A DNA stretch of 64,000 nucleotides from assembly GCA_051362555.1 (NCBI GenBank), contig CM120640.1:59250788-59314787 (forward strand), given 5' to 3'. Positions 1 through 46,479 of the stretch are shown here, piece by piece. Below the pieces are notes generated by a model. That model was not told the DNA's origin and searched no databases. It worked only from the letters and a program-made list of their open reading frames with translations. The stretch is from Lingula anatina. Its lineage: Eukaryota > Animalia > Brachiopoda. Each line of letters opens with the position of its first letter. Within the stretch, counting starts at the first letter, position 1. The position numbers and the translations under genes were made by a program.

Positions 1-3000
1 ACGGTCGAGGGGGATAATAATAAGTACGTTTTGTGTGTAGTTTACAGGACACAATGGTTTATTAATGTAATACAGCCCTAGTACTTGTGATTAATAGTCT
101 TTTACGGTAACTACATCAGACAAATTTGCTTGTAACATTCCTATCTCCATATAACGTGTACCTGATTATGAAATACTGGTGAACCTTCCACACCTATTAA
201 GTATACACGGTGTTCAGTTGCATTTGTAACATTCCATGCCGGGTGGTCAGTTATGATAATTGCAAGTAAGGTAGAAATTAGAGTTGGTATTTTACAACAA
301 CGTTTATCACATAATGATATATATTTCAGAAAACTGAGTTATTTTTTTTATATTTATTTTAGAGCATGACAGACACAGCACATGTTATTGAACCAGGCAA
401 GAACTGTGAGAGTCATGTGGTCAGGATAATCAGATGTTGAAGATTGCTCAGTGTTTATTTATCTCTTATGTCCTTAGTTATTATGTTGTTTACTTAATTA
501 TATCGGGAGTCAACAGATGGCATTTTTGTCTGGGTGTCACTAACAGTATCAGGCATTTTTTTTATTACTTTAAAATGAAATATTTGGTTTTATGAATATA
601 ATTATAGGCCTATGTATTGTACTGCACTAGTGATTTAAAGAAGAAAATTATTTTTCTTGCTAGTATAATTTTTATGTTACTGTAATCTTTTTAAATAACT
701 ATATGACACCTGTTTTTCATATCATTTACTCAGATCACAAATACAAGTTCGCCTGTGAAGTGTTTATTTGTTGCATTTGTGTATAACTGTCAATAAAATG
801 CAATGATTTTGTGAAAATTTCAATTTATATGTTGTCCATTTTAATACTTTCTTTTGTCATCTTTCCTGTCATTTAAGTCGGATCTGATCACAATGAAACT
901 TACATTTTGTGAATGCTATCCATTAGTTTCTATAGCATCATTTTCATAAGTAAATAAATGAAGAAAATTAACTTTATGATCAAACTCGAGCCTTTTGAAT
1001 TAGTTACTATAAATTTAGTGAAATTAAAACAAAGATGCAGGCAAGTCTAATGTTCAGATATGCCAACCATCAGTAAATGAAATGTCAAATGATGTAGCCT
1101 GTTTAACGCGACCTTTGCTGCGTAGCACGTCCTCAGGGCAAATTTTGCATTGCAAGCATCATCGGCACTTAGCTTGGCAAATTCAACATGTCAGTTGTAC
1201 GTACATATTATATCCATACTTTTTCTTTATAAAGTGAAAAAAGAACAAGCTTGCAGCTCAAAAATGTGTATGTTCAGCTATTTTTCAAGTAAAGAAATCG
1301 CTGCTCTACTTCCTTGTGGTCTCCATATTTTAACCCCACCTCAAGGCAGATCTCGTAAAATCACGGTAAAAATTGGTCTTCTCGTTGAGAACCCGGACAT
1401 CCTCTATTGCTCAGATACACCTTGATTTTTGCTAGCCAAAAAGAAGTTCTACTTTCAGTCACCAGATGGCACTGTATGCCTTATAATTTCCCCCTTCTCT
1501 CTGCTAAATAATGTGTTGACTGTTTGTCAATGAAATAACTACAACAACATTCCCCTACCATGACTTACTAAGAGATGTAAAATATGCTTCTGGTTTCCAA
1601 AGATAAATCTCTTTAAACTTTGGTGGTAATCTTGTTGTGACCTTCTCTAGCTACATATCTGTCCAGGTCTCTAATCACATAAACATGCATTTCCACAAAC
1701 AGAAAACCCACGTAAGCTAATATCTTTATCATTTATGATCCCTTTTTATCAAGGAAATTATACAGAATAATTCGATATTCAACTATAAAAACCCATTTTT
1801 TGAAAAAATTTACAATGACCATAATAACAAGAACTATTCTTCATTTCCATATTCAGCAGTGATGGCACGCTAAGCACTGATCTTAATTAAACAATGTCTG
1901 TTCAAAACTAGTTGTCATAAAACCTTACATATATATTTAGAAGATTAGATCATTTGTAAAGCTACTGCAATTTATATATACATGTAGTGCTCAACAAATT
2001 TATTCTCATTATATTCAAGAATGGCAATAAAATAGGCAAAAAGCTTTCCAGCAAAAAATGCCAGCAATGTTGAAGAAATATGCTTGACACTTCAAACCTA
2101 GTCTTCTATAATCTCAAGAGGACTTAGTGCAACTTAGTCCTACCAGCATGTCGACTACATACAAATGACACCTAGTATTATCTATTGCAACTATATTTTC
2201 TGGAGGAGTGAATATTCTGACCTAAATCCAATTCAACCAGTCATGCTACTAACTGATAACATCTTTCATGAATTACAGATTCCAGAATTTAAAGGAATGC
2301 AGTTCCAATAAATCCACCTCAGGTTTGTCAAACAAAACCTTAACCACCCTATTATATAGAGATGATAAATTTTTTACAATATGTTTCTGAAACTTAATTT
2401 ATATGGAATGTAATTTGAGAATAAGTATTACACCACAGGTGTGCCTTCGTTGGATATGGCAGCAGAATATAATTCATTCAAATAACACAAAGAGCTTTTT
2501 TTTACATTTTCAGAAACAGTTTTGTATTTTTGGTAAACGTTGAGAAAATTGCTTAATGTATCTAATTGACCTAGAAATCAAACTGACAGAGGTTATCTTA
2601 GACATTCATTACTTACAGAAATATATGATGCATCACTGCCTTTTTGGCACAGTTTACCTTATTGCAAAAGCAATATACATGAGCATCAATAATTCTTTCG
2701 TACTATTACTGAGCAAAACAAATATTAATAGTTATTGTGTCACATTTTCACAACACGAAATATATTTCATTCTATTCAAAGTCATACGATTTAAGTGTGT
2801 GTTAGCTTGAGGTGCTTTTACATGAATGTTCTCAGGCAATTAATTCAACTGATTTGACAGAGTGTGGTTCTGACCTGAATGTCCTGAAATAACACCACAT
2901 TCTCAATTACATACAACACTACTTTTGGTAGTGAACATGATTCAAGGCCACTCGAGGAATATCTGAATATATGATACTTTACTGTAACCAAATAAGTATG

Positions 3001-6000
3001 TAAATACCAATTGTTTCTATGATTTTTTTTTCACTTTCCAACCAATAGCTTGCAGCAGGGTATTTGTGGGAATATTTATCTTTTGAGATAAGCTTGTTTT
3101 GCCAAACTCCATCCCATGATTCACAAATTAAATGCTCCAATTAGAAATGCAGACTGATTAAGAAACAATACAGTGCCAATCCAGCACTGAGTGACATATA
3201 CCATATAACAGTTAGAGATTATGAGTCACACAATGATAAAATCAACATGAAAATATTTTACTGTGGAAAATTGACAGTAAATGTATCTGGCACAAGAATA
3301 TTATCAAACATAATGGGAACTTTTAATTAAGAATTTACACAACAATATCATTTACTTACTGTTGTATTACTACATTTGCTAGCTATGTACAATTATTAAT
3401 ATGATACTTCAGCAAATATATGAAACAGCCCTCTTCGATATTCTCTCTATAAAAATATACATAAAATTAAGTTACAAATATTATGTCAAAAAATAAAAAA
3501 ATATTTGTATTAGTGACCAACATTTTAACTTTTTCAACATCATTTGGCACCATAATTTTTACTTCTTTAAATTGTCAATTTTTTGTTGCAATATTCACAT
3601 AATTTTCTTTATCTTGGTAAGTAAGTAGCCTTTACTACAGGTTCATGAGCATTATACATATGCTCAATTCATTACTAGTACCATCTTTTCTTCAGCTGTA
3701 TGGGTTCATTGAGTTACCAACATTTCTGCTTGGCTGATGTGATTGGACAAGTGCCCCTCCAGTGCAGCAGGAGGGCAAGCGAATGTTGTAATATCCTTTA
3801 TTGACTTTAAATGTTATGAGAATGCATTATCAAGTTTCTTCTAGGCTATCTATATCATGGGGGTAAACTGGAGTGCAATGTGGGACCGGTCAGGCAGATA
3901 TCAAATGGAAAGATTGCTAATCTATACCATGAAGCAGACAAATTTATGTAGAGCCAGTTTTTTTACATGTAAAATGATACCTAAAGCTTATAAAATTAAC
4001 AATTAATTCCCTATATATTTTTCTTCTCTTTTGACCTTTGAATTCCACATATTTCTTACAACTTTATGTGTTAATAGTTCTGATTTCCCCAAAAATACAT
4101 TTTTAAACACTAAAATTTAGTTACACTTGTTTATACACATCTTTCAATGTTACACCAACAAAAACAGTCACTGCAGATAATTGTGCACTTTAGACAGAGA
4201 TCACCATTCACATATTGAACAACATGTGCAGCAGACTGTCAGTGCTTTGCCCCTTGAACTGCCCTGTTATCAACAGGCTGTGAAAATAAGATTTCTAAGT
4301 ATAATTGTCTATGTACTAAGAAATAGTGAAATTCCCTCTGCAATAAAATATACAAATCTTGTCTTGATATTTAGCTGGTAACAGTATCGCAGGCATGTGA
4401 GTCAATAAATGATTCAAAATTGTCAATAAAAAGATTTATCATCATTATGTTTATTGGCTGCTATTCATCAATGTGCTGTATACTTAATGATATGGCAAAA
4501 TTAACAAAAGGAGTAATAACCAAGAGCAATATCATGCCGTTTGATATGATAGTCAAAGAGGCAAGTAGAAAAGCCTATATATGAGTGAGGTGCAAACTTG
4601 TAGTCTTGAACTATAATATGTATAAATATGTTTTCTTTGATGTTTTATTAGAGTAATATTATACCTGGTAACACAGATACTAACTTGGAGTGCTTTTATT
4701 GCATATACTTGTTATTTAGGTGAAATTCACAGTCTAAAGCATCCAACCTCAAAACTATTCAAAATTGTTCTACAACCTGTTATTTAACAGTAACATGACA
4801 CCTACCAATAATAGATTGTTCTCATTCTTTATATTAGTTCCACATGCACTCACTGGCCACAAATGAGCAATTCAAGTCATATCACCACTTAAATTAAAAC
4901 CATATGTTTTTCTGAGAAAAAATTGTCTAACTTCAATAAATCACTGAGAAAAAATAATCAATCCTGCTTAATTGTATTGTTTCTTTATTCATTAACTTTC
5001 ATCATTAATTTTCAGGACCTTTACAGCTACAGAAAGCAAAGAGGCATTTTCAGTTTTATCTGATAATGTAATAATTAATGAGCCCATATCTGTGAAATGT
5101 ACAACTGTCAAATAATTTATACATGTACCAGCTGATTAAAAATACCCAATGCAGGCAAATTCTAGAATGTGATCATAAAAAATGCTCCACAAAGTTCACA
5201 TTTAAGAATGAACTATTAGCATCTTCTTTTAATCAAGCACGTCTTAATAAATGGTTATCAGTGAACATTGTACAAAGCAAAACCATTTTAACAATGATAT
5301 AATATGTATTAAAATAAACAGAAAATAACAAATAAATGAACAAATAAAGAGACCATGAAAGGATTTGCTTTTCAAGTAATCTTTTCAACCATTATAAAAA
5401 TGTTTGATCATCATAAGAACTTGCTGTGCACCTGTAAATAGATGTACTCCTACTTGACAGGGTGATTGCTGCTTATCTAAAGATAAATGATATCAGCCAA
5501 CTAGAATAATCACAGCTAAATTAAATATTGCCAGCAACACATTATATCTAGGGTATAAATTGCATGACTATGAGAAACTAAAAGGTTGAAGGAATATCAA
5601 TAGATGGTTATTCAGCAAAAGACTACCCTGCTGAATAAATATTTATATCCTGCATATAACTCCATCTTTGATATGTCTCCTCTTTAGTGAATTTGCTTTT
5701 ATTTTTAAATCTAAATACTACCCTCTATTCTAGTATTTATGTTTTTTCTCCTTCTTTCATCATCCCAAATAATTTCTACATTCTACAATTCACAATCTCT
5801 TCTTCCATGAATTCTCCATAGCTGGACATATAATTTGCCTCATCATTCAGGTCCCAACATTGGTCTCCACTAGTTACATACTGTGGTCAATAATATACCA
5901 CTGTCACACATGTATGAGCTTAACTGATGCTACATCAAGAATCATTCTAATGCTGATTCATATAACCTTTGGATATATGTACCACATATTGTATAAATAA

Positions 6001-9000
6001 GAAAAATATACTAAATTCTTTGCCAATTTTTGTCAAACCCCTTAGATCATAACTTTTTAATTGAGCAAAATATCCAGAGTATTGAAAAGAAATCATGCTG
6101 GAGTACATGTATAAGCCCAGAAATGACCGGTCATCTAGGTAAAGACTTTCTGAAGGGCCTCTTATCAATCATGTAACCCTAGGAGGCACAAAAAGCAGTG
6201 TGAATATCAGCCATATGTACATTACATCGTTTAAATTCCAATGGATATTATTTTACCTACACCATTACAAAACAGATATTATCAAAATGTACACTTGCTG
6301 GTCAATCATATAATCCTTGACAGTTAGGGTTGCTTGGTTTGAATGAATGTGAAGAAATGTGCTGATAAGAGAGAACAGTAGATAAACCAATAGTTCTCAT
6401 TAAGTTGATAGGATTGTATTAAACATTATTCTAAATCACTTGCTGAAACAGCAACTGTTTCACGAGTTTAAGCACATGGGTCTAGTTAGCAAGGTAGCAA
6501 CACATGCGATTTCTTAACTTATACAATAAATAAGCCATGCTCATAAAAAACAACTGACATTTATTGTTTTTCACGCTCATTTCTAAAGTCATGGTAAAGA
6601 GTTAATGAATATTGTCAGATGAATCAAACATGAATGTCCTCCCTTCAACAACTGTGCATATTGTACTTCTTGTAAAATTACCAGAGGAAAAAGAAACAAA
6701 GAAACCAAAACCATAAATAATCTGGTAAAGGAAGAGGGGGGGAGGGGGGGGGGAGGGAGTCAAACATTCTTACCCTGTTAGGGTTAATATCAAAGGATTA
6801 TCTCTAATTAACAGAAAATTCATTAAAATCCATAAAATGTAAGCAAACTTTATGTAAAATATCTTTTTAGGTCTAGTATAAACTTAACAAAAAAGCTACT
6901 GGCCAAATTAATTCTAAAAACAAGTATACTCAATACTTGGCAAATTGAGTTTATATTATGCCAGCAAATAAAGGTCACCTGGGCACTGCACCCAAATATG
7001 TTCACCTATCCATGTTCCTGGCACAGGTGCTAGTGTGTCTTATGGGGCCTCGTAAGGTGTAAATGGTAGGTTTGCCAAAATCAAACTATAGTATACTAAA
7101 ATGCTCAGTTCAAATCTTCTGACTGATTACCAAACAAAATCAATAATTGTTATTTACAATTCAAAACTGATGACAAATAGGTATAATTTATACAATTACA
7201 TACATAGGCAAATACATTCACTTTTTATGCCAGAATCACCACAAAACATCAATATCATAGACTGTATCATATAACAGAGATAATGAAAACGATTAATAGT
7301 TTTCAACATGCACATGTCACGGTAAAGGTCTAGTGCATCAGAAACACATTTTGCATAAAAAGCTGAATCTCTTAATTGCATGTGTAAGATTTTCATTAAA
7401 AAAACATTAAGTCAATTACAAAGTGGAGTTCTTGGTATGTAAAAGAAAAAATATTAAAGCAATTCTTATTACTTTAAATCATATCTTACAACAGACAGAA
7501 ATGAACTGAACTGGTATTTATGGATTCCTAACACATCTTTGTAAGTAATAAGACCAAGACAGAGAAAATATGATGTGCCCCATTCATGGATGCCAACACA
7601 GTCCAATTCCAGCCATATTGTGCAAGTATTTCAATGGGAAACATGCCACAAATCTGGATGATTAAGAAAAGACTCATGTTGATCGCTATACCTTTTAAGT
7701 GGGAAAATTAAGCAAATATAAATGTACTATCTGGCATAGAACACAGGCCATGTTGATAATTTCCCAACACTTAAACATAACATGCACAACTGCTTTCCAT
7801 AAATCATCCTGGATATCTTAAACCAAATTTACTGAAGACATTTGCACCTATCATTATTATTGGGCTGTTGGATGTTACATATACATATTAGTAGTATACC
7901 ACATGCAGTTTAAATGTTCCATAATTGATCATTATTGACCAATATCTAAGACTGTTTGTCATTGGGATTGGGAAGAAATATAATGAATAAGGCATTATGC
8001 AGGCTGGAATATTGTGGGCTCCACATAATATCAATATTGACTGTGATATTTTTAAAAGTAAATGTAAACATGCATATAACAGTGGTGATGGATGATTAAA
8101 TATGTATTTGTGTTAAGAAAACCATTTAAATTATATTCAATCTGAGGCATCTTTTACTTTACAGCTATATGAATAATCTAACGGAAGAACTTAAAACTGC
8201 AGATATACAAACACATTTTAACAGGTAATATTCTAACATGGGGAGCTGTTATCTGGTAATATCATACTCTGAAAAGTGGGGTACTTTTCTTTCAGTTATT
8301 AATTTTCTAATAACAATATGTATTATAACATTTGTTCCTGTTTATTTTGAATTCTCTTCCAAAATGTCATTCAATAAACAAAACCAAGTCATTGATGAAA
8401 AGGAAGCAAACCGTTTTTTAAATTGAAGGTGCCTCTTCAGGAAGGGCCTAATAAAATACCACTCTCACTGGTACCCATATTCTGATTCAATTTTAGTTAA
8501 TTACCTGCAAATATCAGGGACAAAGATTCTATGGTAAATGGAATGTTCAGACACATGTAACAAAGATATACTAGGCTAGCTGTTTCTGTTAACTAAAATT
8601 TTGTCATTATGAGTAGTAGAATCACCAACAAAACAAATGTAAATCAATGTGTCAAATATGTCATCATTTTGGAGAAAAACATGTTTACATGTAATACTTG
8701 TCCATGTATATGAATATACATGATAACTCAAACAATCTTAATGATATTTGCAATATTTTCTTACTCCTGAGTTATTATGACCACCAGACTACCAAATGAG
8801 ATTCATTCTGGCATTATCTGGCCATAATAATAATAATATTAATAAAAAAAATAATAATAATAATTTAAAACCCTTTTCAATGCACAATTTTCTTGTGATA
8901 TATGTTTTCTTAAGAGGGTGCAAAGGGAATCATCTCAGATGGCCCGAAGTCTTGCGACTTCACATAAAATCAAGTGAAATTTTTCCAGTGTGGTCAGAAA

Positions 9001-9168
9001 AAATAGTTAACTAGCAATCATGCTGTAGAAACATATAAAAGCTGGCAGAATTTATTGACAGTTATTTTTTCAGTTGTTTTTTGAATTACAGTCTATTGCA
9101 TAACAGTATGCATTCATGTTTTTGCAAAAGTTTTGTATTTCATTCTACAACGACATGTCCAGCACATA

Positions 9169-9382
9169 GACCCCATTTCCAGAGATTAGATCGATCTACT
9201 TTAGATCGACCTAATTCCCTGGGGGTTCATGCTAAATAGCTGTCAGCCGGGGGACACGATAGTTAATTACCCCCTTACAGCTTGTAGTAGGCGGGACGGA
9301 CATTTAAGCCGGATTATCTGACAGTAATCTAGTGAGACTCCACGCGGGGATAGATCGATCTAAAAGCTCTGGGAATACAGCC
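9169..9382. mobile_element. PIF/Harbinger-like MITE, copy 1
   Basis: Imperfect TIRs containing the palindrome TAGATCGATCTA, 3-bp ATA target-site duplication, core homologous to 37504-37729. Confidence 0.75.
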
Positions 9383-12300
9383 ATAGTGTTTAAAATGCTA
9401 TTGCTTAATAGTTAAACCCGTCTTATGTGGATTCTCACAAGTTTTCTGGTTTTGAATGACATCATGCAGTGCCAAGTTTTATGTTATCTTGGATGGAAAT
9501 AGCATATAAAATATAAAACCTCTTTTCTTAAATAATGTAACATCTAACTCCATCTCATAAATGGATGTGCAATTTTACTGCATGGAAGTATTTAACATTT
9601 CATTTGAATTCCTAGTTCATCATACAAATAAATTACAAAATAACACCCTGCACATGACATACCCCAAGACAAATATCTGTAGATAAGAAATGATAAATAC
9701 AGAACCTGACCATGTCAATGAGTATGTCATTAATTATAGAACTTGTCAAGGTCTCATTACCTATATTTCAGTATTTGAATGCAGCAGCATATCATGCATT
9801 ATGAACTGCAAGAAGTCTGAGCCATACATCTCCCAGAATTCACACAGCAAGTGTATCCAATGTAATCTGATATCATATAATTTGTTGGAGAAACATGTAA
9901 ATGACTTTTAGCATTATTAATATAATAACTAACTAAGAAAAGGATCTCCCTGCAAAATTCCTCAGTCAGACCAATTAAATTACTTTAATCAATATCCTTG
10001 TTAATCATCCTGTCTGATGAAACAAAAAAATAAGATGATAATATTGTTCTACATCAGGTTTCTTGCACTAAAAAAACATTCAGTATATGATACTATCAAA
10101 GATGATAATTTCTCTAAAGGCTATAATGAAATAAAACCAAACATGCCATCTTTATCAACATACTGACAAAGATGTTATGATATAATGGGTAAATTGTGTC
10201 AAATGACAATGTACACTGTATGTATGCTGTTAAACCAATGGTATAAAACATTATATTGATTTACAGCATTTTAAATACTGCTGATTGTCTCAGACTACTT
10301 CTAAAACCAAACTTCCTTCCAACAGTGAATGTTGTTCTACAAACTCAATCCTCTCCCCAATATGCCAAATATACCAGAAGAAATCTATACTTCCAAAGAA
10401 CAATCCAACCCATTACAGTCACAAAAATATCCAAAGCCAGTAAGTAAATTTTGGAAAGTGCATATTATTCAAATCAAATTTGTTCATTTCTAATCTTGAA
10501 CAAAGAGACTGCTCATAATGTGTAAGTTAGTTAAGCTGATAATGCAATGGTATCGATCAGGAGAAAGAACATATGCAGTAAATACTCTCCAATTCCTGTG
10601 ACCAATAACTGAATAAGTATAAAATCCTCTACCTTTACATTTATTCAGCTAAGCTTTGACCTTTAACTGCCAGGATCATGTAAGGACACACTTGTCAGTC
10701 TAATTTATTTGAAAAGATTGCTTCACTAAGCAGATTTACTATACTCAGCATGGGATGTTACCATTGTCATTTCACAATTACTCATCGATACAATAACAAT
10801 TTTAAAATTTCTAGAAATAACCTATTATCCAATAAAATCAGAAGTTGATGCCAGTTACCTCTGTCAGTTTTTGACAAAATATAATGAACCTATTCAAATG
10901 CTGGCTACATGGATTCCGTGCAGCAAACATATGTTCACTGTATCTTATATGCTTTTTACATTTTTAACAATGGCAATCAATATCATGCAAAATAAACAAT
11001 CACTAAGTAATGCACACCTGTCTAGTAACAAAATCTTAACTGGCTATGGATCAGGCTGTGCCATATATTATATAGTTTTTTTTTTTTTTTTTTTTTTTTG
11101 ACAAAACAAATTTAATTTGAAATCAAAAGTTGTGCCGTTTTCAATTTCAGATCAACAGGACTTGCCATCTGTTGCCACAATTAATAATATGCAGATTAAG
11201 AAGGGTAGTTTTGGTTTCATAAAACTTACTGAATAAATGGCTTAATGATATAATTCACTTCTACATCCATGCATTCTATTTCCTATCATAAAAATATCTA
11301 AACTTTCACTGTCACTGGATTCCACCTGTTATTACAGGTCAACAATAAAAAAAAAAAGAGAGAGAGAGAAAGAAAAACCCAAGGAAGCCAAGGTAAATAA
11401 GAACAATATGCATAATTTACAATAGTTGGTAAAAGGTATTTGTATAAACAACCCTGTCTTTTGGTGGGTCTTAAGGTTAAACTGTGTAGTTAAAGTGTCA
11501 TGAGTGTGCATCAATAGCAAACACTATGCATTCTTTCAACATAAGCAGTGGTATACATACTTAAATTGTTAAATGAGTTTTTTTTTTAATTTACAAAATG
11601 TATGAGTAACACACTGAGACAGGTATCTATGCTTAATTCATTTCAAATTGTGGTTTTACTTCCTGAAACTCCATATTCCATCTTTATAATACACTCATGC
11701 ATTTCCTTTCTTTTGTTGGATCTATAGTCACCTTTCTGAGTCTGACTGATGACTCTTTCTCCCTCCCCTCAGGGTTCTGCTTCATAACAGAGATCTATAT
11801 TTTATGGATATTGTCTCATTTGAGTGTTGTGCTCTGATGATCACAAAAGGCCAACAAAGGAATACCACGAATGCTTGTCCAAAATCCAATGCTAATATAG
11901 CTAGAATATCTTTTTTAAAGAAAACAAAAACCAACTAAGGATGATTTCTAATTATTTGTTTGTGTATTAAATTAAATTTAAGATTGTGTCTCCTTTTCCT
12001 AGAACGAAAATACATGAAAAACACATATAACCTTCTTTTAGGTTTGTTTACTAAGCAGTGTTTATATTTTTTGGTTTCCAACAAATTCGAAGTAATTTGT
12101 ACTTTAAATAAAAAAACAAATATTTCACTAAATCCCTCACTTTATTAATCCACATTTTGATAATCAACTCTTTAGATGCAAAGATTCATATCAAAGTTCA
12201 GAACAACCAGAGGATGTATAAAAAAGTAGAAAGTCATGCAAGTAAATTAAAAAACATAAAATGTGAACATCTAGTCCAATTTACTGACATATTCACCTTT

Positions 12301-13944
12301 ATCATTTTAAACAGGTTGAAAATTACAATTTATTTTCACCTGCCATGAAAATAGACTACCAGGACCATTTCCCTAGTAACAGAGGGCAAAGGTAATAGGT
12401 AGGTAGTTTACCATTAAATATGGGTAAATAACAAGGTATTTGCTTGACCTCTTCATGACGTTTTCAAATAAAGAGCAATGTAAGAGAATAAGAACCCTCT
12501 ACTTAAATAAGAACCTACTGCAATTGTTCTTTTTTGCATTAAATTGATTAATGGCACTTGTGCCAGGCATAGTTAATTTATTTTTGTATGTATTTTAAGG
12601 CCATATTTACATGAATAACATATTTGTTGTGCTCAACTGGATATCGTATCCTTCTTATCATGAACTTTTGGTGTTAATGTCATTCATCTCTTCAATCTCA
12701 AGCCATAATACGACGTGAAGAAAAATAACCAAATTGATAGAATATTTTTCTGGAGTCGTAAAATAACATCTAAACAGCAACTGTCATCTCTTTTATTACC
12801 AACACTTCTCAACATACTATAAAATAAAAGATCACATTTTCATCTGTAAAGTATGCAAATATCATCCAAATAATGGAAAATAGTTACGGATCCCTGTTAG
12901 CCACAATATCTCCCATTAAACCTCAATTCAGCATTATCTGCTATCAAGAGTACAAGTTCCATTTTGTCACCTGCTATAAAATAAATAGGGCAAGGTAGAC
13001 TAATGAATGGCAAACTTCATTTGAAGCTTGATTCATGATTTAGGTACTGAGATTGCCTAATTAAGCACTCCAAGCCATGATATGTAGTGAGAGAGCAACA
13101 AATGGATCCGCAAGCATACCATTTGAAAGTAAGAATAATATCTGCCTCATATGTCTATTCAACACTTTCTGAATATTTCATATATTACCAAGAGCTGCAA
13201 GATCGAGTTAACTATTCATATCACCTGCATCTTTAAAATGGGTGAAAATGGAATAAACACGGCTACTTATATAATTTTCCTTTTCAAATTCAGCTCCTAA
13301 CATCCTTTTCGTTGGGTCATGGTGCAGATGCTTAAAATTTTACTACTTTTAAGATAATAGAGGTGGAAGAAAAAAAATTTTTTTTTGACTTTGAAACTCT
13401 AATTTAACAACCACTGATACTGGTAGTAGCTTACTCCAGTAAAAAGAACCTGTATATTAAAGGAGAGACTTTGATGAAAATCAGGAGCAAAAGTCAACAA
13501 ATCATACTTCCAAATGCTATATGTTCAGTTCCATATGGTCCAATTGCACCACTCCAAATAAAAATTCGCAACACTTAATTTGGTGATTGTAGTACTTAAA
13601 TCACAGCTCAAACATCCATAGATAAACAGATGGATGTAATGGCAGATAAAGAGACAGACAGACAGACAAACTGACAAAAAAGGAAAACACTGGAATCAGT
13701 TCACAAAATCTAGGGAACTGATCACCAAGCCATCTTGTTTCTAGTATTGGATACCCTAAATTACACAGAGAGCAAGATGATGCATTTAAAATAAAACCAA
13801 AAAAAAATTGGGCAAACTTGGATTCTTCATTACTTCGTAGGAACAGATGTAGGAACATACTTCAAGTGGGCAGGCTGTCATACTACTGTCAAAAAGAAAA
13901 AGAGCACTCCTCTGGAAACGTTTCCTTCTCACAAGAAAACTCAC

Positions 13945-16900
13945 CTCTCCCTGATGTGGAGACCTGTGTAACTTCCCCAGTTCCATTATTTTTCAGGGCA
14001 GGCCAGGAATACACAAAGGCACTTGTATGTGTTGAACCAGCATCTAATACTACTGCATACTATAGAAATGTAAGAAAATAAAATTCTCCACCTTGAAATC
14101 ATTTGTCCCATTAGAGATTTTAACACAAAATCTTCAAAGATTGTTAAGAAGCATATAAACAGCACATCAAGAATGACAGATTTTAATGAGAACTTGCAAT
14201 GAAACGCTGTGGACTCTAGCAGACAGGCCAAATTGATTGATGAAATGCATCATTACTTTTAAATTAATACCTTTGAAGAAAAGTTTGAGGCACAGTACTT
14301 TTGCGTGGCATTACAATACTTATCAATTTGTAATCATACCTTCTGCATAATTTTCAGATGAGAACAGTAGTTACCATTTACAGGCTAGAATGAAGTGTCC
14401 AACCTCTTTAAATAATCAGTATAAAAATCAAAATTACCTCTGTGATTGGACTATCCCCTTGGACCTTGACTATACTGATGATGGTAATTCCTGTACCACC
14501 AATTATCAAGCAAACAGCTGCCAAGACCCACCATTGGTTGCACCTTATACGTGAAGCAAGACTTTCTGCTGGAAAAGTATAAAATTGCATAATAAAACAT
14601 TACTGTTTACATGGCATGATAGTATACAAAGAAGCTAATATAAACACATGGAAGATAGAGTATTATAATCATAATAAGTAATATCCCCCCCCCCTTAAAG
14701 TTTAACTTACCAAAACCTGTTAAACATGTTAGACGTTTAGATTCTGAGGAGTCTCCAACGTCTGTTTCAGACATAACTGGAAAATCTGTATATCTTTATA
14801 CTATACAATGATGTTTCACCAAACTAGTTGAAATACACTGCTTGCATATCAAACAAAAATTTACTAAAGTCAAACAAAACTGTCATGTACTTGTGATGTG
14901 ATTTGCTTTCCATCAAATAGGTTTCAGAAAAATGTTCAGTAAGCTCTTTCTGACTTTCCAATATTGTAAAACTTCAGCACAGGCTTCCATAATTAAAGTT
15001 TAAGCCCCATAATGGAGAATCAATAAGTTTCTGATACTTAGTCATGTTCCTGATCACTAACTGTGAAAGGGCAACCCTGTACATGCAATAGCCATTTCCC
15101 TGAACTCATCTTTCTCAGTGTTGAAATAAGTTGGTATTGAATGGCTGTACATGTAAATCCAATCAATGTCATCATTTGTGAGTGCCCAATAGAATGCAAA
15201 GGAATGATTTATAACTGGTTTGACATGTACTCTTTTCTTTAGATACAGAGATTATAGGCACTGAAGAGTGCAGATTGCCTCTACATTGATTGGGACACTA
15301 ACAAATCAAAATCTTGACCTCAGTCATTACATGTGTATAAAATGTTCTAAAATGATTCTACTTTCTTTAGTCAGAATTCCAATTAACTTAAGGCAAAATT
15401 TATAACATCTACAGTTGATGAGACAGATTAATCACTTAAAAATTTATGTCAAAGTAAACATCCTGATATTTGCTTGCTTACTGGAAAAAATTAACTAGAA
15501 AGCAAAGCTGGAAAATATACAGACAAGTAACAGGAAAAATTATTCCCATTGCTCCATTTTAACCTATACAGGCACATTGAAGTAAACAATAACTTTTGCA
15601 AAAATAGTCCAATCATACCAACTTTTGAGAAGAACCTGCCTATTTACCAAACAAAACTTCTCTGCAAATTTGAATTAAAAGAAATTAATGGTTTGGCACT
15701 TGTGGGACATATGTCTCCAAAATACATGCATAAAACAAAAAATCTATAACTTTGGCAAAGTCAATTAGATAATGCTGAGTAACCTTCCTCTTCACCAAAC
15801 AAACCCACCTAGTTTATTTAAAGAAAAACAAATGCATAGTTTGGCAGTTATAGGATGAATTATCAATAACACATGTGGAGTGGTGATGATCATGAGCAGA
15901 CAGTGATCAGAATTTATTAAGACACATTTAGTATAGTGTCTATATATATATAAAATTAAAGAATAATTCAATGGCATATATATAGACATTAATGGTATCT
16001 TTTTCAGGATTTTCATGCTAAAACAAATTTTCCCTGTGAAATTATTAGAAAATAATCTACTCTAATAATAATAATAACCTGATCATACAGATTTTCAAAC
16101 TTAGCCTGCCTTTTAATCAACTAAAGCTCCTTAATTAATTAAAAACAATACAACTAAACAGCAAAACTGGCAAATATACAGACACCATACAGAAAACAAG
16201 GCAGCAAAGTTCAAAGATTATGCAGAAAAAAATGTCATAATGTTTTGGCTAATTTTGGGCTGAACATCACAAAAATACATGCATAAAAACAAAAAATCCC
16301 ATAATTATAATAAAATCTTATTGCCATTTATGAAATATTGTTCTTTTGTAAATTTATTTGAAGTAAAACAAAATACATTTTGGCACTTAAAGGGCAAACA
16401 AATGTGTTGGTAAACAAAATTGACAGTAATGAACAAAGGTAATCAAAATTTATACAAACACTGAGGGAGTGTGTGCATGCCAGAGAAAAAGAGAGAGAGA
16501 GATAAAGGGCCCATTCACAATGTCAACCTAGCCAATTCCCACTGAATCAATCAGATGAGCTGATTAACATGCCTTCTCGTTTCCAACATATATTTAACAG
16601 CTTTTCTACAATCTACTCATCGCCAGGAGGAGGCCTGTCACTCTGTAAATCTGACTGCTTTCAGCAAGAGTCCTTGTGAAGTTAGTAGGCATTAGCTTGT
16701 TTGTCATTGTGAATGGTCCCTTTTTCTTTGTTTTTTTCAAAAGCTAACATAAACAAAACTCATCATAATACAAAATAATGCTAACAATTTTAAAACAAAA
16801 TAAAAAAAATATAGCCAAAGATAAATCTGTGTCTTGTACACTGAATACATTAATCTCAGAGCATACAAAAATGAACACTTGGTATCAATTATAAGATTTG

Positions 16901-17513
16901 GTGTCAAATATATAGTCAACAAAGTGTCAAATTTGAAGCCATTTCCCACAATCATTCTGTTGAGTTCCAACTGATATATATACCCTACAAACGTATCTTC
17001 TTGGCTCACTTTTCTTTTTCATTTGTCATTATGTGAGTGAAGGATAGCATGCATTTCATTTTCTTGCATAAAATACATACTTGAAGAAGCTGTAGTAATT
17101 TTCTCATTCGTAATTGATGCCACAAGCCCTAATTTAGTGCTTAGTCAGTAATGCTTAATGTACAAAATACTCACAATAAATGAAACATTAATGAACAATC
17201 TGTGATTGACCATTGTTGTTGTTGTGGCAAAACAGTATTAAAATATGCTTACTTAAATGTCTAGACTCTAATAAAACTTACCTGAAGTCAGGTACAGAAC
17301 ATCTCCACTGTTAATACCACATGTTCCTAATGTCCTTGAAACATGCAATATATTATCATCTTTGGTTTTCAGTGCATATTCTGATTTTTGCTGGATGTTT
17401 TTATCTATGCAAAATGCTGCTATCAGACTGTCAACAGTTTGAGTTGGGTCTGTTGCTACGGTTAAACGTCCTGAGGCCCCATCCCCTAAAGTGCTCTGGA
17501 TTGTCACTTCCAT
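13945..17513 (-). CDS. 5' coding exons of a CD39/GDA1-family ectonucleoside triphosphate diphosphohydrolase (ENTPD1/2/3/8-like) with an N-terminal ubiquitin-like domain; partial
   Basis: Exons 17513-17282 ([10 protein letters not shown]...[12 protein letters not shown], Ubl-like, phase 1, GTAAGT donor), 14568-14438 ([45 protein letters not shown] helix, phase 0) and 14059-13945 ([33 protein letters not shown], apyrase conserved region 1 DAGSxHT, phase 1, GTGAGT donor). All GT-AG and phase-compatible; exon and phase layout matches CD39 exons 2-3 as recalled. Confidence 0.85.
16507..16720. mobile_element. MITE with about 30-bp imperfect TIRs
   Basis: Left GGGCCCATTCACAATGTCAACCTAGCCAAT versus reverse complement of right end GGGACCATTCACAATGACAAACAAGCTAAT. 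Confidence 0.65.
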
Positions 17514-18589
17514 ATTTGTGGCAGGTACTATCACAGATAACAGTTTAGCCCAGGAGAAAACATACTATTTAATGTTTCTGAGAATCATATATCCATGATC
17601 ACAGTCAGTGACTCCAAGTGATAATCTGAAATGGTAAACAAAATATATGTGAGTTCATACATGTTTATATATGTAATGTAGAATAAAATTTTTAGGAATT
17701 CACAAACATACACTAAACAGTTCTTTGGCATAAGTATTTTATTTTCAAATGTTCTCTAAATTCAGTTATGTGAGCCATGTCTCTACTATTCTAATAAGTT
17801 TGCAATAAACTTATGATTTCCAATGTTTTTACAAATTGCCCATATTAAGTCCATTAAAATATAATGACAGCTGTGGTAATTTCAAGGCTGAACATCTCAA
17901 AATCAGTACGTGAATGATAAAATTAATTCCTTTACCAGGGATATTGATCAAAGTCACAACATAACTCTCTTTAGAAAAACAAAATATAAAACCAAAGATT
18001 TGCATTTAAAGTTAGGGGATAACTGCATAAGTGCCAACCATACCACATGAAATTTCTGTGGAATTTGTTCACCAAAATTGAACAAAAGAAGAGACTACTC
18101 TCTAACACAACAATACAAAGCAGTACAAGTACCATAAACAACAGTAAAAATAATGTAATATTTGTTGCCAGTGGCCAATAAAAAACGCCCACCACACTAC
18201 TGAGTATATACTGGGTAAAAATTGGAAGTTTAAGTTTGACACATACTGCAAAGTGGCCAGTTTGTCCAAAATGAATTTGTTTCACATAATTTCAAAGAGA
18301 TAATTAAACATCACCAAAAATCCCCACACAAAGCAGTCAGCGGCAGATGTACAACCTAAAAAATGTTCTAGATGTCATGTGTAGAAAACTTCAAAAGCAG
18401 CACAATGTGATGTACACAAACAATATACCGGAAGACGAAGATCAAACACTGTTTACAGAGAATGTACTCTCTCAACAGCTAAATAGTTTCTTTAGACTTT
18501 AAGCTAACACAAAACTTGTGTAAATTAACGGTTCTTCAAAATCCGTCAGCACATTTTTTCTAAAAAACAAGAAAATTATCCGTACGTAC

Positions 18590-18640
18590 TCGAGCTTCGT
18601 CTGCAGCCGCCATCTTCTCAAGGTCACACAACATCGAGAT
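18590..18640 (-). other. Putative first exon of the NTPDase gene (short MAAADEAR ORF from ATG at 18613)
   Basis: Minus strand reads AAGATGGCGGCTGCAGACGAAGCTCGA|GTACGT in a CpG-rich patch; a matching acceptor (tttcag|) precedes 17625. Confidence 0.5.
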
Positions 18641-18890
18641 CAATTTGTTTTTATATAATCAAGAGCGATTGCCGAATAGTTTTTCTAAAAAATTATGAAA
18701 ATATTTCTTTGAAAATAATCTTTGCTTAATGATGGTTTAAAAGAGTTATTTCAAAACTTTGAAAAATATTGAATAAATTATGGAAATTATGTCGGCCTCA
18801 ATCCGTGACGTCATTAATTAGGGACCAAATATAAATGTATTGTACAGTGTATTTATTGAAGACGCCTCGCTTTTATCAAGATTACTGTTG
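18590..18890. promoter_or_regulatory. Bidirectional promoter between the NTPDase and ARID5 genes, with YY1 and CRE motifs
   Basis: Divergent first exons about 280 bp apart; GCCGCCATCTT (YY1 consensus) at 18606-18616; TGACGTCA (CRE) at 18806-18813; local CpG enrichment. Confidence 0.6.
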
Positions 18891-21800
18891 ATGGAGTCTT
18901 CAAAAATTGAGGTGAGTAGTCCGAAAAAGTTATTAAGTTTATTTAAAGTAGTTTTTAAGAGAAAATTCCGATAAAAATTGTTTCAAGAGTTATTTTGAGC
19001 TGGTATTTATTTCGCTCTTGGATGTGACCTGAACTGGGGAAGTTGATGAACTGTGAGCACGCCCCGCACCACTGTGGCAAGATTGCATTTCGCCTCAAAT
19101 ATTTCTCTCTCGTTTCAGTTTCTAGGCACTCCGTGTGGCCACCATGGGCCATACACCTTCTACAAGGCCATCAAATATTCCCTGGGGAATAAAAGTCAAA
19201 TTTTATCACTGGGCGAATTTTTCTATGTGAAACATTCTGAAGATGCCCCCATTTGTATCGGAGAAGTTCAGTTACTTTGGGTCGACAAAAATACCTGTCA
19301 TGATCTGTCTAGTGTCCGATTATATTTCCTGCCAGAACACACCCCAGAAGGAAAACAGCAATATCATGGAGAGGTAAAATGAAAATCCAGTATTTAATTT
19401 AAAAGAGAAAAGTTGAAATGTGCATTTGTTATTAAGTTTTCTTATTCAATGTTTATTTAGTGTTTGTTTACACTTGAGTGATTCACTAAAGTGGCTTAAC
19501 AATGGGTATAGTATTTTGAGGTAAAAGTTCATATAGGGAACAAATCCAATGCATATGATTTGCAATTTGACTGTATATGATAAATAAATTAGTACTCACA
19601 ATTTTACTTACTAAATTAACAAGCAGATTATTAGAGATATTAATTGATGTGTCTCTGTAATTGTTTCATTTTTGGCACAGAGATGTTGATGAAAAACATA
19701 TAACTTAAAGACATTTATTATGGTTATACTGATATTTTATCTGAACTGATGTCTAATTAACCTGAATAGTTTTGATAATAGCATCTTGGAAAGTACTGTT
19801 GAGAGATGCACGAGTTTTAACTAGCTAAGAAATGTAAGCCAAAATTCCTTAACCTTTTTTTTTTGTTATCTGCATTCTTTATTGTTCTACTTAAGAACCT
19901 AGTAGCATGTGTCCTAGTAAACAGTTAAATATGATACTGACTTATAAAATTACTGCCCTTGATGTTAATAGTAAATGCCCTTGTGAATGGATAACAAATG
20001 TTGAAATTGACTATCCATGTCTTAGGTTGAGGGCCTGATATATTCATCAGAAAACACTCCTGCTATTGTGTGTAGCAAATAGCTGATTCTGCTTGATGTA
20101 TCGATTTTAATACTCCATGGTCTTTTCCCACTAACATATATATATATATATATATACCTGTAACTCAAATAACCTCAATTACCCATCCTCCTTATAAAAT
20201 AAAATGTTTACCTAACATCTTGAAAATTGATAAGAGCCCAAATGACTTATTTGGCTGTGAAAAAATCTTTTTATGGGAACTAAGCCTTCTATAATGTAGA
20301 AACAGTAGATGTAATTAAAGGTGGAAAAACCATGTGTCATGTAAATGTTAGTAACAGGCAGTTAGTTTTCTTTTGTGTGTCATTTTTCTTTTTGGCATCT
20401 GAGGCCCTATTAAAATTCAGCCCACCACTACACCACTATGATTATGGCTAGAGGGGATAATGGCAGGCCTACAATACAATCACATGAACTGAAGTGATGC
20501 ATTACATGCTGTGAATAGATGGTCGAATGTCTTTGCTATTGTTGTCCAAACGAACCTTAATAAAATCAATATAATTATCAGTTCTGCTCCTTATTATTGA
20601 TGTCAGATTTTAGTTATGTTTGAATTAAATGGAGCTGAGCTTGATAAGAGTGGATATATGGAAATGCTCAGTGCATCTGTTATTAATCATCTTCCTAGAC
20701 TCATTGGTTTAACTAAAATAGCAAACACTGTTTTATTTAATATGGTTGTCTTGAAGTGAAAATAGCCTCATTTAATATTAAAGACCAATTGTTATAACTA
20801 ACTTAGAATGATGAAAAGAAATAGCTTTTTTAATTTGAACTAAAATATGGTACAAACTTGAAAGTTCAGAATGTTTGCATACGAATTTATTTTAGTAACT
20901 CCAAATTATGGAGTGTAGGAATTTCTCTGATGATATCCTTGCTATTGCTTGATGTGTACTGGAAGTTGGTAACTCTTAATTAACACACACATGTAAGAGG
21001 TGCAGCTTGTCAAATACTGTGACAAGGAGGGAATGCATATCCCTCTTAAGATAATTTTCAAGATGTGTAGTGGACCACATACTAGCCAAAATATCCTGAG
21101 CTCCCATTATTATCTCAGGGCTTCAGTAACCCAGCCCCAAGTATATGTGTAATGAGTTGATTAAACATTCCCATATAGCAACAAGATAAATTTATCCAAC
21201 AGATCATTAAGACTCGTTTTTAAAGAAAGATCCTGTTTTGCTGAAGTTTAAATGTAAATAACAGAGAGGATTGAACACACATAATATCTGACCTACTTTA
21301 TTTTCACTAAATAAGTAGATTGAATATTTAAAGGAGAGCAATATGTTGTTTTAATCTGTAGGAATGTGTTGGTATAAGATAAGATAGATACCTTTAAACA
21401 ATTTCACCACACAATTTCAGTGGTATTGGCCAAATTATTTATTTTTTTTTTACTAGAAATATGCAAAAAGAAATTGCTCCAAAAAGATTTTTGTCATATG
21501 ATGATTAATTTATTATATTATCACAAGGAAGTTTCTTTCATTGGTGGAAAACAACAGCAGTATTAATAATAGTTGTTCAGACAGAGTTAGTTCAATTAAA
21601 AACACTACTTTAGCATTGGACAAATAATAGTAGTGAATTTGTAATTGTTAATTACAGGTGTCTGATCAATGAAGTTAACAGTTTAATGCAGCATCTGCAA
21701 GTGTCTTAAAGAATGTCAGCTTGCACAGTCCACACTTAAGGCATTGTGTGATTTGGCCCAGCTTTGACTAATGTAAAATAAATATGGCCTTTGTTGTGGG

Positions 21801-27229: not shown

Positions 27230-30200
27230 CCCTTAAACCAAAATCGGTAGAATATATTCTACCGATTTTGGTTTAAGGGCTTATTATTATTATGTATATT
27301 TGAGAATCAGTCAGTGATAAACTCAGTAAGACTTATCTTTTTGATAAATGATCCACGAGTACTTAGTTGCAATACTGCACAGATAAGAGCCCCATCTGTT
27401 AGGAATTTAGGGTACTAAATGTACATGATGATGAAACAAAGGAGTGGTAAATATTAATAAGATGAGTATGCAAAAGCAGCATCACAGAGAATGCAAATGC
27501 CTGTTTACTTATTGGTTTGATAAAGAATATTAATTTTTCATGCTATTTTTTATTTGATCAGTATTAAAATATTATCAGTTTCATAATCCTGTTTGACATA
27601 TGAAAATATTGTTCATGTACTAGTATAAAAACATGTATAAAATGTAACCAATTTTATGTTCAGTTCTGTTATAATATCTTGTTATTATTAAATTCAAAGT
27701 ATATATATATATATTGTGTTATTCCTAAGTGGTGAATAAAGGAGTAGCATTTCTTTGACAGCAGTAGAAATGACAGTAGCATTGATTTAAATTTTCAGGT
27801 GTTTGCAACAGCATGAAAGGCACGGAAGTGATAATACTTAGTTATTCCCAATACTGCCGCTACAAAGCCATTCTCAAACGCCTCGAGGGAGTGACAGACA
27901 AATGGCTTAGGAACACCTTAGTGTGTGCCATTGGTGGCTTTACATTTAACAGTAAGAATGCTCGAATACTTTTCTGTAAGGACACATTTGAGCATCCAGA
28001 ACTTGAGGAACTTGAAGTGCGTTGTGATGAACTTGGTAAGTTTGGCAATAGACATATTGTTTTTAAATTAATGTACATATTGTACATACTGTAAAGCATC
28101 AGCATGTTTTGTTCACTGTTTCTGTCCGTGTCACTGTTGTTGCATTTTTTTCCTGAAATTTAATTGAAAGATATGCTCATACAGTAATACATATTGGTAG
28201 TTGGTCAGAAAACCACAACAGATTGTGAAATACATAAACTTTTTTGTTTAAGGTTATCCAAATGTAACAGATAATTCTTTGCATGCATTTGATATAGTTC
28301 ATGAGATCCAATATTATGGCTTTTGGTATCGAGTTTTGCCTTAAGGAATGTGTGGATTTCAAAGCCCCTTTATGCATTCATATAACATCCCCAGTAGATT
28401 TTTATTCCATTGTTATTGCATGTAGATATTTATGCATGTTAAAATCTTCAGGTCTGTATTAAGTGTTACATTTCGTTATAACAGCACCAAACCTAAAAGG
28501 CCGTCCAAGGAAAAAGAAACGTCTTAAAAAGGAGAGTTCTATAGAGTCAGAGTCAGGAGAAGAAAGTACAAGCATGGATTCTGTCAGTTTTAAGAAGGTG
28601 AGCCATATGTTGTACACTCTTTTTTATATGAGAGGCATGATGGAGCTAATAATGTAAGTAGTTGAATGAAGGCATGCAGATAATCTGATCAGTTAAACAG
28701 ATTTGAATGGTTGTCTGGTGTATTATTTCACTTTGTTTGTCATTGCCTCTGTTAAAAAATAGCAAATGCGAATTATGTACTCATATCCCATATCACATTT
28801 GACCAACCCCATCCATCTGAGCCTGTTCCCTGAATATTGGTATCCTGTCTGGGAATGCCAATATATAAATATTTGATCTTGTCTTTTTGGGCTCAAGTCA
28901 AGCAAGATGGAAAGAACAATAGTATATGTGAATTCATGAAGCATTTTTTTTTTTTAGTCTCAGGCTCGTGGAGAGAGAAGGAATGGCAAGTCTATGTCAC
29001 CTAAAGATATGGCAGAAGCAGACTTTCTGGCAGCCTTGTATAAGTTCATGAGGAACAGACAGAGTCCCATCACCAAGGTCCCTTCATTAGGATTCAAAAC
29101 AAGTGAGTCGGTTTTGAAGGCTGAATTTTTAATGTTTATATTTTGTGACTGTTTCCTAAAAATCAATCATGAAATTTTTGGGTAAAATGAAGATTCTGAA
29201 TTATTTAGATGATACTCTAAATATTGAACTTAATGTAGCATTTTCTTATGTATTAAGCTCCTAAGTTAAGGCCATGGTAAGATTGATGTTGAACCCCTGA
29301 TAAATCCTCTCAAGAAGTATTATTAGTAAAAATAAGTTAAATGAAGCATAGAGTGTGTAGTAAGTGTCTTGTATCAGTAGGATAAAGTATTACTTTAAAA
29401 TCAGCTTAGGGAAAAAAGGTCTATACTCTCATTACTATTGTTGCTATTACTTTATCTCTGTATATTTTCACCAGCTCAGTCTGGTGCAGTAAGTATGAAT
29501 AAAGCATCATGTATAATGCTCAACTGGATATTAATTATGTTTAAATTGGAAGCTAGTATTGCATTGCATTTCATTTGTTATGGTGATATATACTGGCTGT
29601 GTCGTTTCATCTATAAGCGGGCTACATGTTGAGAATACATAAAATGTATGGTGTTGAAATGATTCCAAATGAAGTATACAAAGTTTAGCAACAAAATAAT
29701 AATGATAATAATTGTATCATAGTAGCTTCTAAAAACGATCTTTAAAATGATGGATGTTAAATTAGTAGCTAGAGATGACTGGTTTCCACACTTTTTGGTC
29801 ACAGTTGCTCAGACATAATATCAGTGTGACATATCCTTGTCATTTCTTACAATAATTTATGGATGGATACAATACTGTTACCTGCGGGCAGTTCAAAAAT
29901 ACACCAGACAACCATTCTTGTTTGTTTACTTTTGGCATTATATAAGTTTTTACTAGTTAAATTTCATGGTTTGTTGTAATATGTGGCACGTCAAATTGAA
30001 TTTTAATTTAATTAAAGATTTTACTAGTAAAATGAAGCACAGAAGTTATCCCCGTTTTCAGACTGAAAAACTGCACCATCTTAAATTTTATTTCAGTTGA
30101 CCTGTATTACTTTTACTCCAGTGCACAGAAGTATGGGGGCTATGAACAGGTAAAGAACAGCTCCATTTTAAAAAGGGAAATATAGAAAACTGCTCAAAGA

Positions 30201-43800: not shown

Positions 43801-44087
43801 TCTCTAATAACATGTATTTTTGTAAAAAAGGATCACGTCACAGCTGTAAACTTTTTTTTTTTTTTTAGTGGTCATGATTCCAGATAGTACGGGTACAGCA
43901 TAGAAAATGCAAAATACCAGTGAAGATATCCATATATTTAATAATTAACCCAGTAAAATCTTGGACATCTGATGTTCCACAGAGGTAAAAAAAAAAAAAT
44001 TCAAACGACATGACCAAGCTGGGTTAGAGGTGGGTCAACCTTTTTGACCAAGAATACGTGTACATTTATGTCGGACCCGTGTATATA

Positions 44088-45540: not shown

Positions 45541-46479
45541 TATACGGCTGTGGTAATACTCGTAGAAAAAGGTTTTTATTTTTTGACATGTCATAATACT
45601 AGCATAATCAAGATTGTTTTCCATTATTGAAGTGTGTAATTGTGACTAAAACATGGTATAAAATTCTTTTACTTCAATTCCAATACAACTGACATTCTAA
45701 CTTAATTTTAAAAACAAATATAAAGTGTTACCAAAGATATAAATATGAAATAAAAATAAATTGTTTTTGTGATCAGACAGCTTTCATTGCCAAGTTCCAC
45801 AACTACATATTTTTAAATTCAAACCCCATGTTCATTCAGGTGATTTCAGTACCCCTTGAATTATTTCATTTCTTTAAATTGGGAAGAACATCCAATAGAA
45901 ACATCCAATAGCCAACAGAATGTCACCAAACATAAAATCAGCATTTTTTTTTGGTTTGTCCAGAATCAAAGTTTATTCAAATGATTTTGTACACCATCAG
46001 GTGAATATTTAGCTTTCCATGCTGCATCTTTTAATTTGGAAGCTTACATTACCAACACAATAGTGTTAGTGTTCCAAATATGTAGGATTTAAGAGAAAGA
46101 GAGAGAAAATAAAAAGCTGATAAGATGAATATTTATTTGAATACAATATCATATAGAAAGACTACAGTATTTTTCCATTTTATTTACATGTAACTATCTA
46201 TAAGACCAAGTTTATATAAACAGAAGCTTGTCTCCCTATCTACATCATTAGACAAATTAGTGCCCAGTTAATTGCTTGTAGGTCAAGAGCATTTTAAGTG
46301 GGTACAACTTTCATTGTTTAAGAAAATTAAAAGGGGAAATATAGTTATGTTGGTGAAACAGAAATATTTGACATAACTATTGACAGAGTGAAAGCCACTG
46401 ATTGTCCTTCAACGGAAAACACCCTATATTTATAAGTATACAATGTTCAATCAATCATTTATCTTCGCCTCGATTTCGG

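Follow-up and report, generated by a model that had tools for sequence, protein, structure and literature searches.

CD39-type enzymes terminate ATP/ADP signalling, and knowledge of how they are controlled from the cytosol comes from the short tail of the vertebrate proteins. A 64,000-nucleotide stretch of the Lingula anatina genome (contig CM120640.1, positions 59,250,788 to 59,314,787; hereafter the window) carries on its minus strand an exon resembling a ubiquitin-like domain (Ubl) upstream of the transmembrane and first apyrase exons of a CD39-type NTPDase. The initial annotation, made from sequence, had proposed that this exon is spliced in phase to a transmembrane exon and then to the exon of apyrase conserved region 1 (ACR1), having replaced the tiny first exon usual in the family as a local novelty; interaction, trafficking or turnover in the cytosol were suggested as what the fusion could serve. 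We regard the Ubl-transmembrane-apyrase architecture itself as practically certain. The gene is real and expressed, and it represents an ancient form of CD39 that has apparently not been described before. Being widespread, it is less odd than was first thought, yet it says something broader about the family.

Splicing of the Ubl exon to the apyrase exons

Translation from the ATG at 17513 gives an exon 2 coding part of 232 nt ending in phase 1, followed by exons of 131 nt (14568-14438) and 115 nt (14059-13945); the three coding exons have AG/GT ends throughout, show phases 1, 0 and 1, and splice to 159 stop-free codons. The spliced peptide is identical, except at positions 50 and 99, to residues 1-159 of a 621-aa L. 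anatina record retrieved by protein search (XP_013419262.1), which is named NTPDase 8 and already includes the Ubl exon. RNA evidence came from 8 of nine listed runs with the species label Lingula anatina, 6-30% of each run being read. The junction 17282-to-14568 was present in all eight with 92 reads (17, 1, 10, 11, 17, 21, 2 and 13 per run), as was the junction 14438-to-14059 with 156 reads, and no rival joint into 14568 appeared among the joints listed for these runs. The exons thus lie where the initial annotation had put them, and neither skipping of the Ubl exon nor its membership of another gene was borne out.

Reads leaving 13945 share one 30-nt loose end in three of the four runs checked, whose hand translation corresponds to residues 160-169 of XP_013419262.1. 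Because a 17-nt piece of this loose end is absent from the window and no exon-like RNA depth was found across positions 1-13944, the rest of the gene is placed outside the window. This displacement, and the lack of a Pfam call above cut-off for the Lingula Ubl, are what could be said for the exon being a brachiopod-specific replacement, the exon of another gene or an annotation artefact; the junction reads in every run refute that explanation, as does the recurrence of the fusion in eight phyla, both in named species and in further assembled records, and we attach next to no probability to it.

The Ubl domain and the enzyme that carries it

Residues 1-77 matched Pfam families at sub-threshold values (YukD 5.6e-5, DUF2604 4e-4, Rad60-SLD 7e-4, ubiquitin 0.066), and an Atlas feature search with residues 1-78 returned unnamed clusters alone, at scores of 0.8 or less. 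A single-sequence fold model had low confidence (predicted local distance difference test, pLDDT, 54) and was set aside; the model built from an alignment of 31 of the 33 Ubl matches described below reached a pLDDT of 93.8 and predicts a beta-beta-alpha-beta-beta-beta (beta-grasp) fold. Against ubiquitin and SUMO structures it gave a TM-score of about 0.8, with 17-21% identity to ubiquitin. The structural matches were led by Rad60 SLD2 (Z 13.1, root-mean-square deviation 1.1, 71 residues aligned), followed by ubiquitin (Z 12.1) and by YukD and kindlin (both 11.9), and since these Z-scores are nearly tied, within about 1, no Ubl subfamily is singled out. The beta-grasp pattern claimed for residues 1-77 is therefore backed by the model and its ubiquitin-family matches, and the finding defines a ubiquitin-like subfamily largely missed by Pfam.

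The nearness of this fold to ubiquitin is one point in favour of the Ubl acting as a turnover handle, a ubiquitin tag built into the protein. Through contacts with the proteasome, p97 or UBA/UIM receptors, it would shorten the life of the enzyme or route it to lysosomes. Integral Ubl precedents are provided by Rad23/Dsk2 and by membrane proteins of the endoplasmic reticulum such as HERP, and proteasome or UBA binding by UBL domains uses a Leu8-Ile44-Val70 hydrophobic patch. In agreement with such a role, the Leu8-like residue L9 is aliphatic in 34 of 35 proteins, the His68 position (Y74) is conserved as mostly aromatic or Met, and the aligned part of the Atlas model resembles TUG-UBL1 and ubiquitin clusters. 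However, the Val70 position is occupied by G/T/H/A across the family, the Ile44 register, read from sequence rather than coordinates, is ambiguous (HMMER aligns L48, while strand alternation points to K49, which is R/K in 25 of 35), and the identity to ubiquitin is low; we therefore consider a turnover handle unlikely.

The same structural ranking bears on a second alternative, namely that the Ubl is a signalling input whose ligand would be a small GTPase (RA/RBD-like), a protein of the SUMO pathway (Rad60-SLD-like) or else membrane lipids and the cytoskeleton (talin/kindlin F0-F1-like), and which would tune catalysis through the first transmembrane helix (TM1) instead of traffic. Rad60 SLD2 and kindlin are among the best matches, and the Ubl profile, which matches ubiquitin chains, also reaches talin-1 at E 1e-4; moreover, some 12 residues lie between the Ubl and TM1, and CD39 activity is governed by the transmembrane helices of the enzyme (PMC7859358). 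But the near tie with ubiquitin and YukD favours no subfamily, weak matches to Pfam RBD were confined to 3 of 31 members and RA_2 matched 1 of 35, and a shared fold shows no function, so that an input of this kind appears improbable.

Gly-Gly was found in none of the 35 linkers that follow the Ubl in the fused proteins, as the initial annotation had noted for Lingula, and because it is missing from all of them the Ubl is, on sequence grounds, an integral domain and not a conjugatable modifier. Within the domain L56 is kept in 35/35 proteins and C35 in 32/35; a by-eye look for a PB1-type acidic motif saw none. Ubiquitin-fusion precursors exist, and cleavage of the Ubl in their manner, or its persistence as an inert passenger, could be suggested by its faster evolution than the ectodomain (median pairwise identity 27% versus 40%) and by annotated short isoforms that lack it. 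Reads, mostly from one study, contained 12 coding variants, nine silent and three changing a residue (I5V, K38R, S117N), and the four within the Ubl exon were two silent and two conservative (I5V, K38R), a pattern consistent with constraint in a small sample. Together with the missing Gly-Gly and the retention of the Ubl in eight phyla with a conserved core, it makes a cleaved or inert Ubl very unlikely.

GDA1/CD39 NTPDases are characterised by conserved regions and a catalytic Glu. PF01150 matched the full-length protein at E 2.4e-92 and was present in all 35 fused proteins, in which the apyrase residues D127-A-G-S-x-H132, A207-T-x-G-M-R212, E255, W260 and D297-x-G-G-A-S302 were invariant. 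The closest solved structures were NTPDase2 (E 2e-81) and NTPDase1 (3e-75), with intracellular NTPDase4 and plant apyrases at 2e-28 to 5e-30 (NTPDase4 2e-28), and a whole-protein Atlas search led to a 108-member, 612-aa GDA1/CD39 cluster whose commonest phylum is Arthropoda. With invariant apyrase motifs and NTPDase2 and NTPDase1 as its nearest structures, the enzyme would be expected to hydrolyse NTP/NDP on the non-cytosolic side. Conservation extends to the hydrophobic columns 89-111 and 578-602, TM1 being assigned by eye from hydrophobicity and the last helix located by a hydropathy window without a dedicated transmembrane predictor. By analogy with CD39 topology (PMC7859358), both ends would lie in the cytosol, with the active site facing the exterior or a lumen, leaving an N-tail of about 88 residues that includes the folded Ubl.

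Distribution, history and sorting signals

A Ubl search of 1.84 billion representatives (E up to 0.001) gave 33 matches, comprising eight with GDA1_CD39, one Ubl-plus-transmembrane fragment, 22 short single-exon calls and two poly-Ubl repeats. As eight of the ten matched proteins longer than 400 aa are NTPDases, the other two being poly-ubiquitin-like repeats, the Ubl subfamily looks NTPDase-specific; a profile search of longer proteins yielded seven matches, of which six were NTPDases. A full-length profile search scored 7,996 candidates and matched 970, the best 120 of which divided into 27 with and 93 without the Ubl; its design biases it to Ubl forms, and it is incomplete, as it missed several of its own query members. 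The Ubl profile scored 33.8-108.6 bits on the 27 and at most 1.1 bits on 92 others, Lineus X2 being judged by eye. Named carriers of the Ubl-TM1-apyrase-second-helix layout are Lingula, Lineus, Owenia, ten bivalve and two gastropod genera, Paramacrobiotus, Strigamia, Chamberlinius, Nymphon, Eriocheir, Scylla, Saccoglossus and Branchiostoma, spanning eight phyla by our own assignment, including amphioxus and a hemichordate. Among the matches listed, the Ubl was absent from 84/84 vertebrate-type records (76 from named species), from 3/3 coral-type records and from single models of a crinoid, a chiton and an argonaut, and these matches held no insect, nematode, tunicate or jawless-fish record. 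The 1697-aa Strigamia model (P0014) contains three NTPDase units with the Ubl on the first alone, and is probably a set of tandem paralogues merged by annotation.

That protostomes and deuterostomes, eight phyla in all, share the fusion contradicts a local replacement of the first exon. Since it occurs in protostomes, a hemichordate and amphioxus, it would be at least as old as their common ancestor, i.e. an ancient bilaterian form. In catalytic-domain trees rooted on corals, the vertebrate sequences came out as a single clade (support 99) within the bilaterians, the deep nodes being poorly resolved, and vertebrates and Ubl forms grouped together against corals; later trees dropped 9, then 13 further rows (near-duplicates and long branches). 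Approximately unbiased (AU) tests rejected none of the placements compared, namely a deuterostome clade with vertebrates among the Ubl forms (p 0.156), vertebrates with amphioxus (0.109) and vertebrates outside the Ubl group (0.146). Loss of the Ubl on the vertebrate line is the simplest reading, and the short vertebrate tail may be a derived state; a gain in bilaterians cannot be told from a loss in corals.

Ubl-less short isoforms are annotated beside long ones in Pecten, Lineus and Branchiostoma, and with both kinds in three genera a choice between two starts seems to be at work. In Pecten and Lineus the short form parts from the long one at the end point of the Ubl domain, and 21 of the 22 single-exon calls carry G/S/R two positions past that end (hand count), as expected if a phase-1 intron after the Ubl is shared. 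In Lingula, a 66-nt in-frame mini exon with an ATG and a phase-1 donor could be the start of a short Ubl-less isoform. It was missed in a strict splice scan and picked up once the pyrimidine threshold was relaxed, and its chance expectation is 0.012-0.07 per intron by criteria set after seeing it; no RNA depth was found at 14714-14882 in 4/4 runs and no joint in 8 runs, and as no read supports it, it remains a candidate.

The C-terminal tails also distinguish the two groups. YxxΦ motifs were found in 33/35 Ubl-bearing proteins (a tail set that swaps two members relative to the apyrase alignment set) versus 0/83 vertebrate-type ones, where shuffled tails give 10.7 and 3.7, respectively; two or more occur in 23/35 Ubl forms and a terminal Y-G/D-A/S/T/V-I/L/V in 30/35, and the median tail length is 25 versus 13 residues. 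YxxΦ and dileucine motifs are sorting signals recognised by clathrin adaptors (PMC8946281), and the conservation of tail YxxΦ here raises doubt about a plasma-membrane ('ecto') location. The N-tails of the coral-type forms (P0152, P0115, P0136) bear a dileucine-type motif, DxxPL[IM], and their C-tails have no YxxΦ, so that sorting signals may be ancestral in the group even without the Ubl. In Scylla, isoforms of 638 and 629 aa (P0041, P0177-P0179) are alike up to the first tyrosine motif of the C-tail and differ from there on, both lacking a Y-G-x-Φ end. A supposed resemblance between the tail and a CLN7 lysosomal motif was not confirmed, 'YGRI' not being found in the papers searched.

On these grounds we favour a role in trafficking, with a probability of roughly 0.5, in which the Ubl would be a cytosolic, uncleaved docking module before TM1 that controls, together with the C-tail tyrosine motifs, the traffic of the enzyme between cell surface and endolysosomes. 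Clathrin adaptors would read the tail YxxΦ, while a protein partner would dock on the Ubl. This partner is proposed by analogy with CD39, whose short N-tail is palmitoylated and binds RanBPM with lowered activity (PMC7859358), so that control is known to be exerted at this place in the protein. The cell would switch between long and short isoforms through first-exon choice, and the fusion would have arisen by the bilaterian ancestor and been lost on the vertebrate line. Such docking in trafficking is favoured over a turnover tag or an input to catalysis.

Several points weigh against this interpretation. For every member, the Ubl partner, localisation and activity are drawn by analogy. Continuity from the Ubl to the catalytic part is pieced from separate junctions, with no single or long read across, and use of the Ubl ATG is predicted from the transcript; the 139-nt spliced leader (18613-17514) contains four upstream ATGs, opening frames of 14, 3, 7 and 10 codons, the first being the out-of-frame exon 1 ATG at 18613, and these may hold down how much of the Ubl form is translated. 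The Ubl-less crinoid, chiton and argonaut models retain tyrosine tail motifs, so that the tail does not need the Ubl if these models are complete. The 35 Ubl-bearing sequences are not independent, about two thirds being molluscan or mollusc-like, and because they are related the co-occurrence of Ubl and YxxΦ is weak evidence and may reflect shared descent alone. As the vertebrate set is mostly NTPDase1 with few NTPDase3, one Labeo NTPDase2 and no NTPDase8, '0 of 83' falls short of the whole vertebrate subfamily. Finally, vertebrate loss is not proven, because the AU tests reject neither placement of the vertebrates.

A folded, conserved cytosolic domain and sorting motifs in molluscs, annelids, crustaceans and amphioxus suggest that most animal phyla regulate these enzymes by another logic. 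A wider proposal, which we hold at somewhat less than even odds, is that the bilaterian ancestor had a CD39 apyrase under trafficking control, equipped with a dedicated, undescribed Ubl and with tyrosine sorting signals in tandem, and able to switch form through alternative first exons. Both cytosolic modules would have been lost in vertebrates as the family expanded, making the textbook short-tailed ecto-enzyme a stripped, derived form, and most invertebrates would steer nucleotide signalling via a never-studied ubiquitin-like input.

The window and the comparison with known systems

Coordinates of the gene features within the window are collected below.

Table 1. NTPDase gene features in the 64,000-nucleotide window of Lingula anatina.
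Feature	Position	Strand	Basis
Exon 1, 5' leader	18590-18614	-	Read 5' ends at 18609-18614; joint 18590-to-17625
Exon 2, leader with three more upstream ATGs, then Ubl coding part	17282-17625	-	Joints at both ends; splice sites
Ubl coding part, residues 1-77, phase-1 intron after it	17282-17513	-	Translation; fold model; homologues
Candidate in-frame mini exon	14711-14776	-	Sequence pattern
Linker with juxtamembrane Cys87, TM1, start of ecto/luminal part	14438-14568	-	Joints; column conservation
ACR1 exon of GDA1/CD39 apyrase domain	13945-14059	-	Joints; PF01150 E 1.3e-7, above cut-off
Intron of >13.9 kb; remaining 462 codons outside the window	1-13944	-	No exon-like depth; full-length record

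A plus-strand gene (about 18700-19379, joint 18909-19117) starts a few hundred bases from the 5' end of the NTPDase gene at 18614, forming a head-to-head promoter; one of its exons has a weak BAH match (E 0.006) and an exon near 28958-29182 looks ARID-like, which would suggest an ARID5-type gene. Farther along the plus strand lies an intronless 500-codon GH5 open reading frame (47029-48528) with Pfam Cellulase and Glyco_hydro_5_C, which we take to resemble endoglycoceramidase; lacking introns in an intron-rich genome, it is possibly a retrocopy or an old transfer. Exons at 50854-58074 (+) presumably resemble Xaa-Pro aminopeptidase 1. A short repeat element at 9170-9380 has RNA depth around 1000 and many loose ends, and it resembles a small mobile element that is abundant in transcripts from other places. 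Repeated blocks with peptides recurring in several frames, likely tandem or interspersed repeats, occupy 30200-36000 and 44000-45600.

The initial annotation did not recognise the architecture, and no published description of a Ubl-CD39 fusion was found in the literature searched, subscription journals and supplements being outside its scope; the accessible text of PMC9857879, which treats CD39 evolution, mentions no Ubl. In single records the Ubl had already been flagged by machine, since UniRef A0A0P4VYV9 and A0A0P4VS49 (Scylla olivacea) and C3ZTK6 (Branchiostoma floridae) bear the same fusion under the automatic name 'Ubiquitin-like domain-containing protein'; most members, that of Lingula included, are named merely NTPDase 1/2/3/8-like.

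Among known beta-grasp domains, the Lingula Ubl shares its fold (Z 10-13) and the lack of a terminal Gly-Gly with Rad60/NFATC2IP SLD, TUG-UBL1, YukD, the UBL of Rad23/Dsk2/Ddi2 and talin/kindlin F0-F1, but its identity to these integral structures is only 12-22%, and it falls into an NTPDase-linked subfamily of its own. The coral surface-type NTPDase (Stylophora pistillata and two relatives) has the apyrase and two-helix layout in common and is 41% identical to the family profile across 473 columns, whereas its annotated isoforms lack the Ubl and bear the DxxPL[IM] N-tail motif instead. Vertebrate NTPDases 1, 2, 3 and 8 (CD39/ENTPD1, PF01150) are alike in the two anchors flanking an intact apyrase domain and, in many members, in a juxtamembrane Cys of the N-tail; they differ in having no Ubl before TM1 (0/84), a shorter C-tail and no YxxΦ (0/83), where the invertebrate forms carry the 77-residue Ubl. 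The cell-surface NTPDase1/2/3/8 group usually has a short unfolded N-tail, from which the Lingula protein departs as an added-domain variant.

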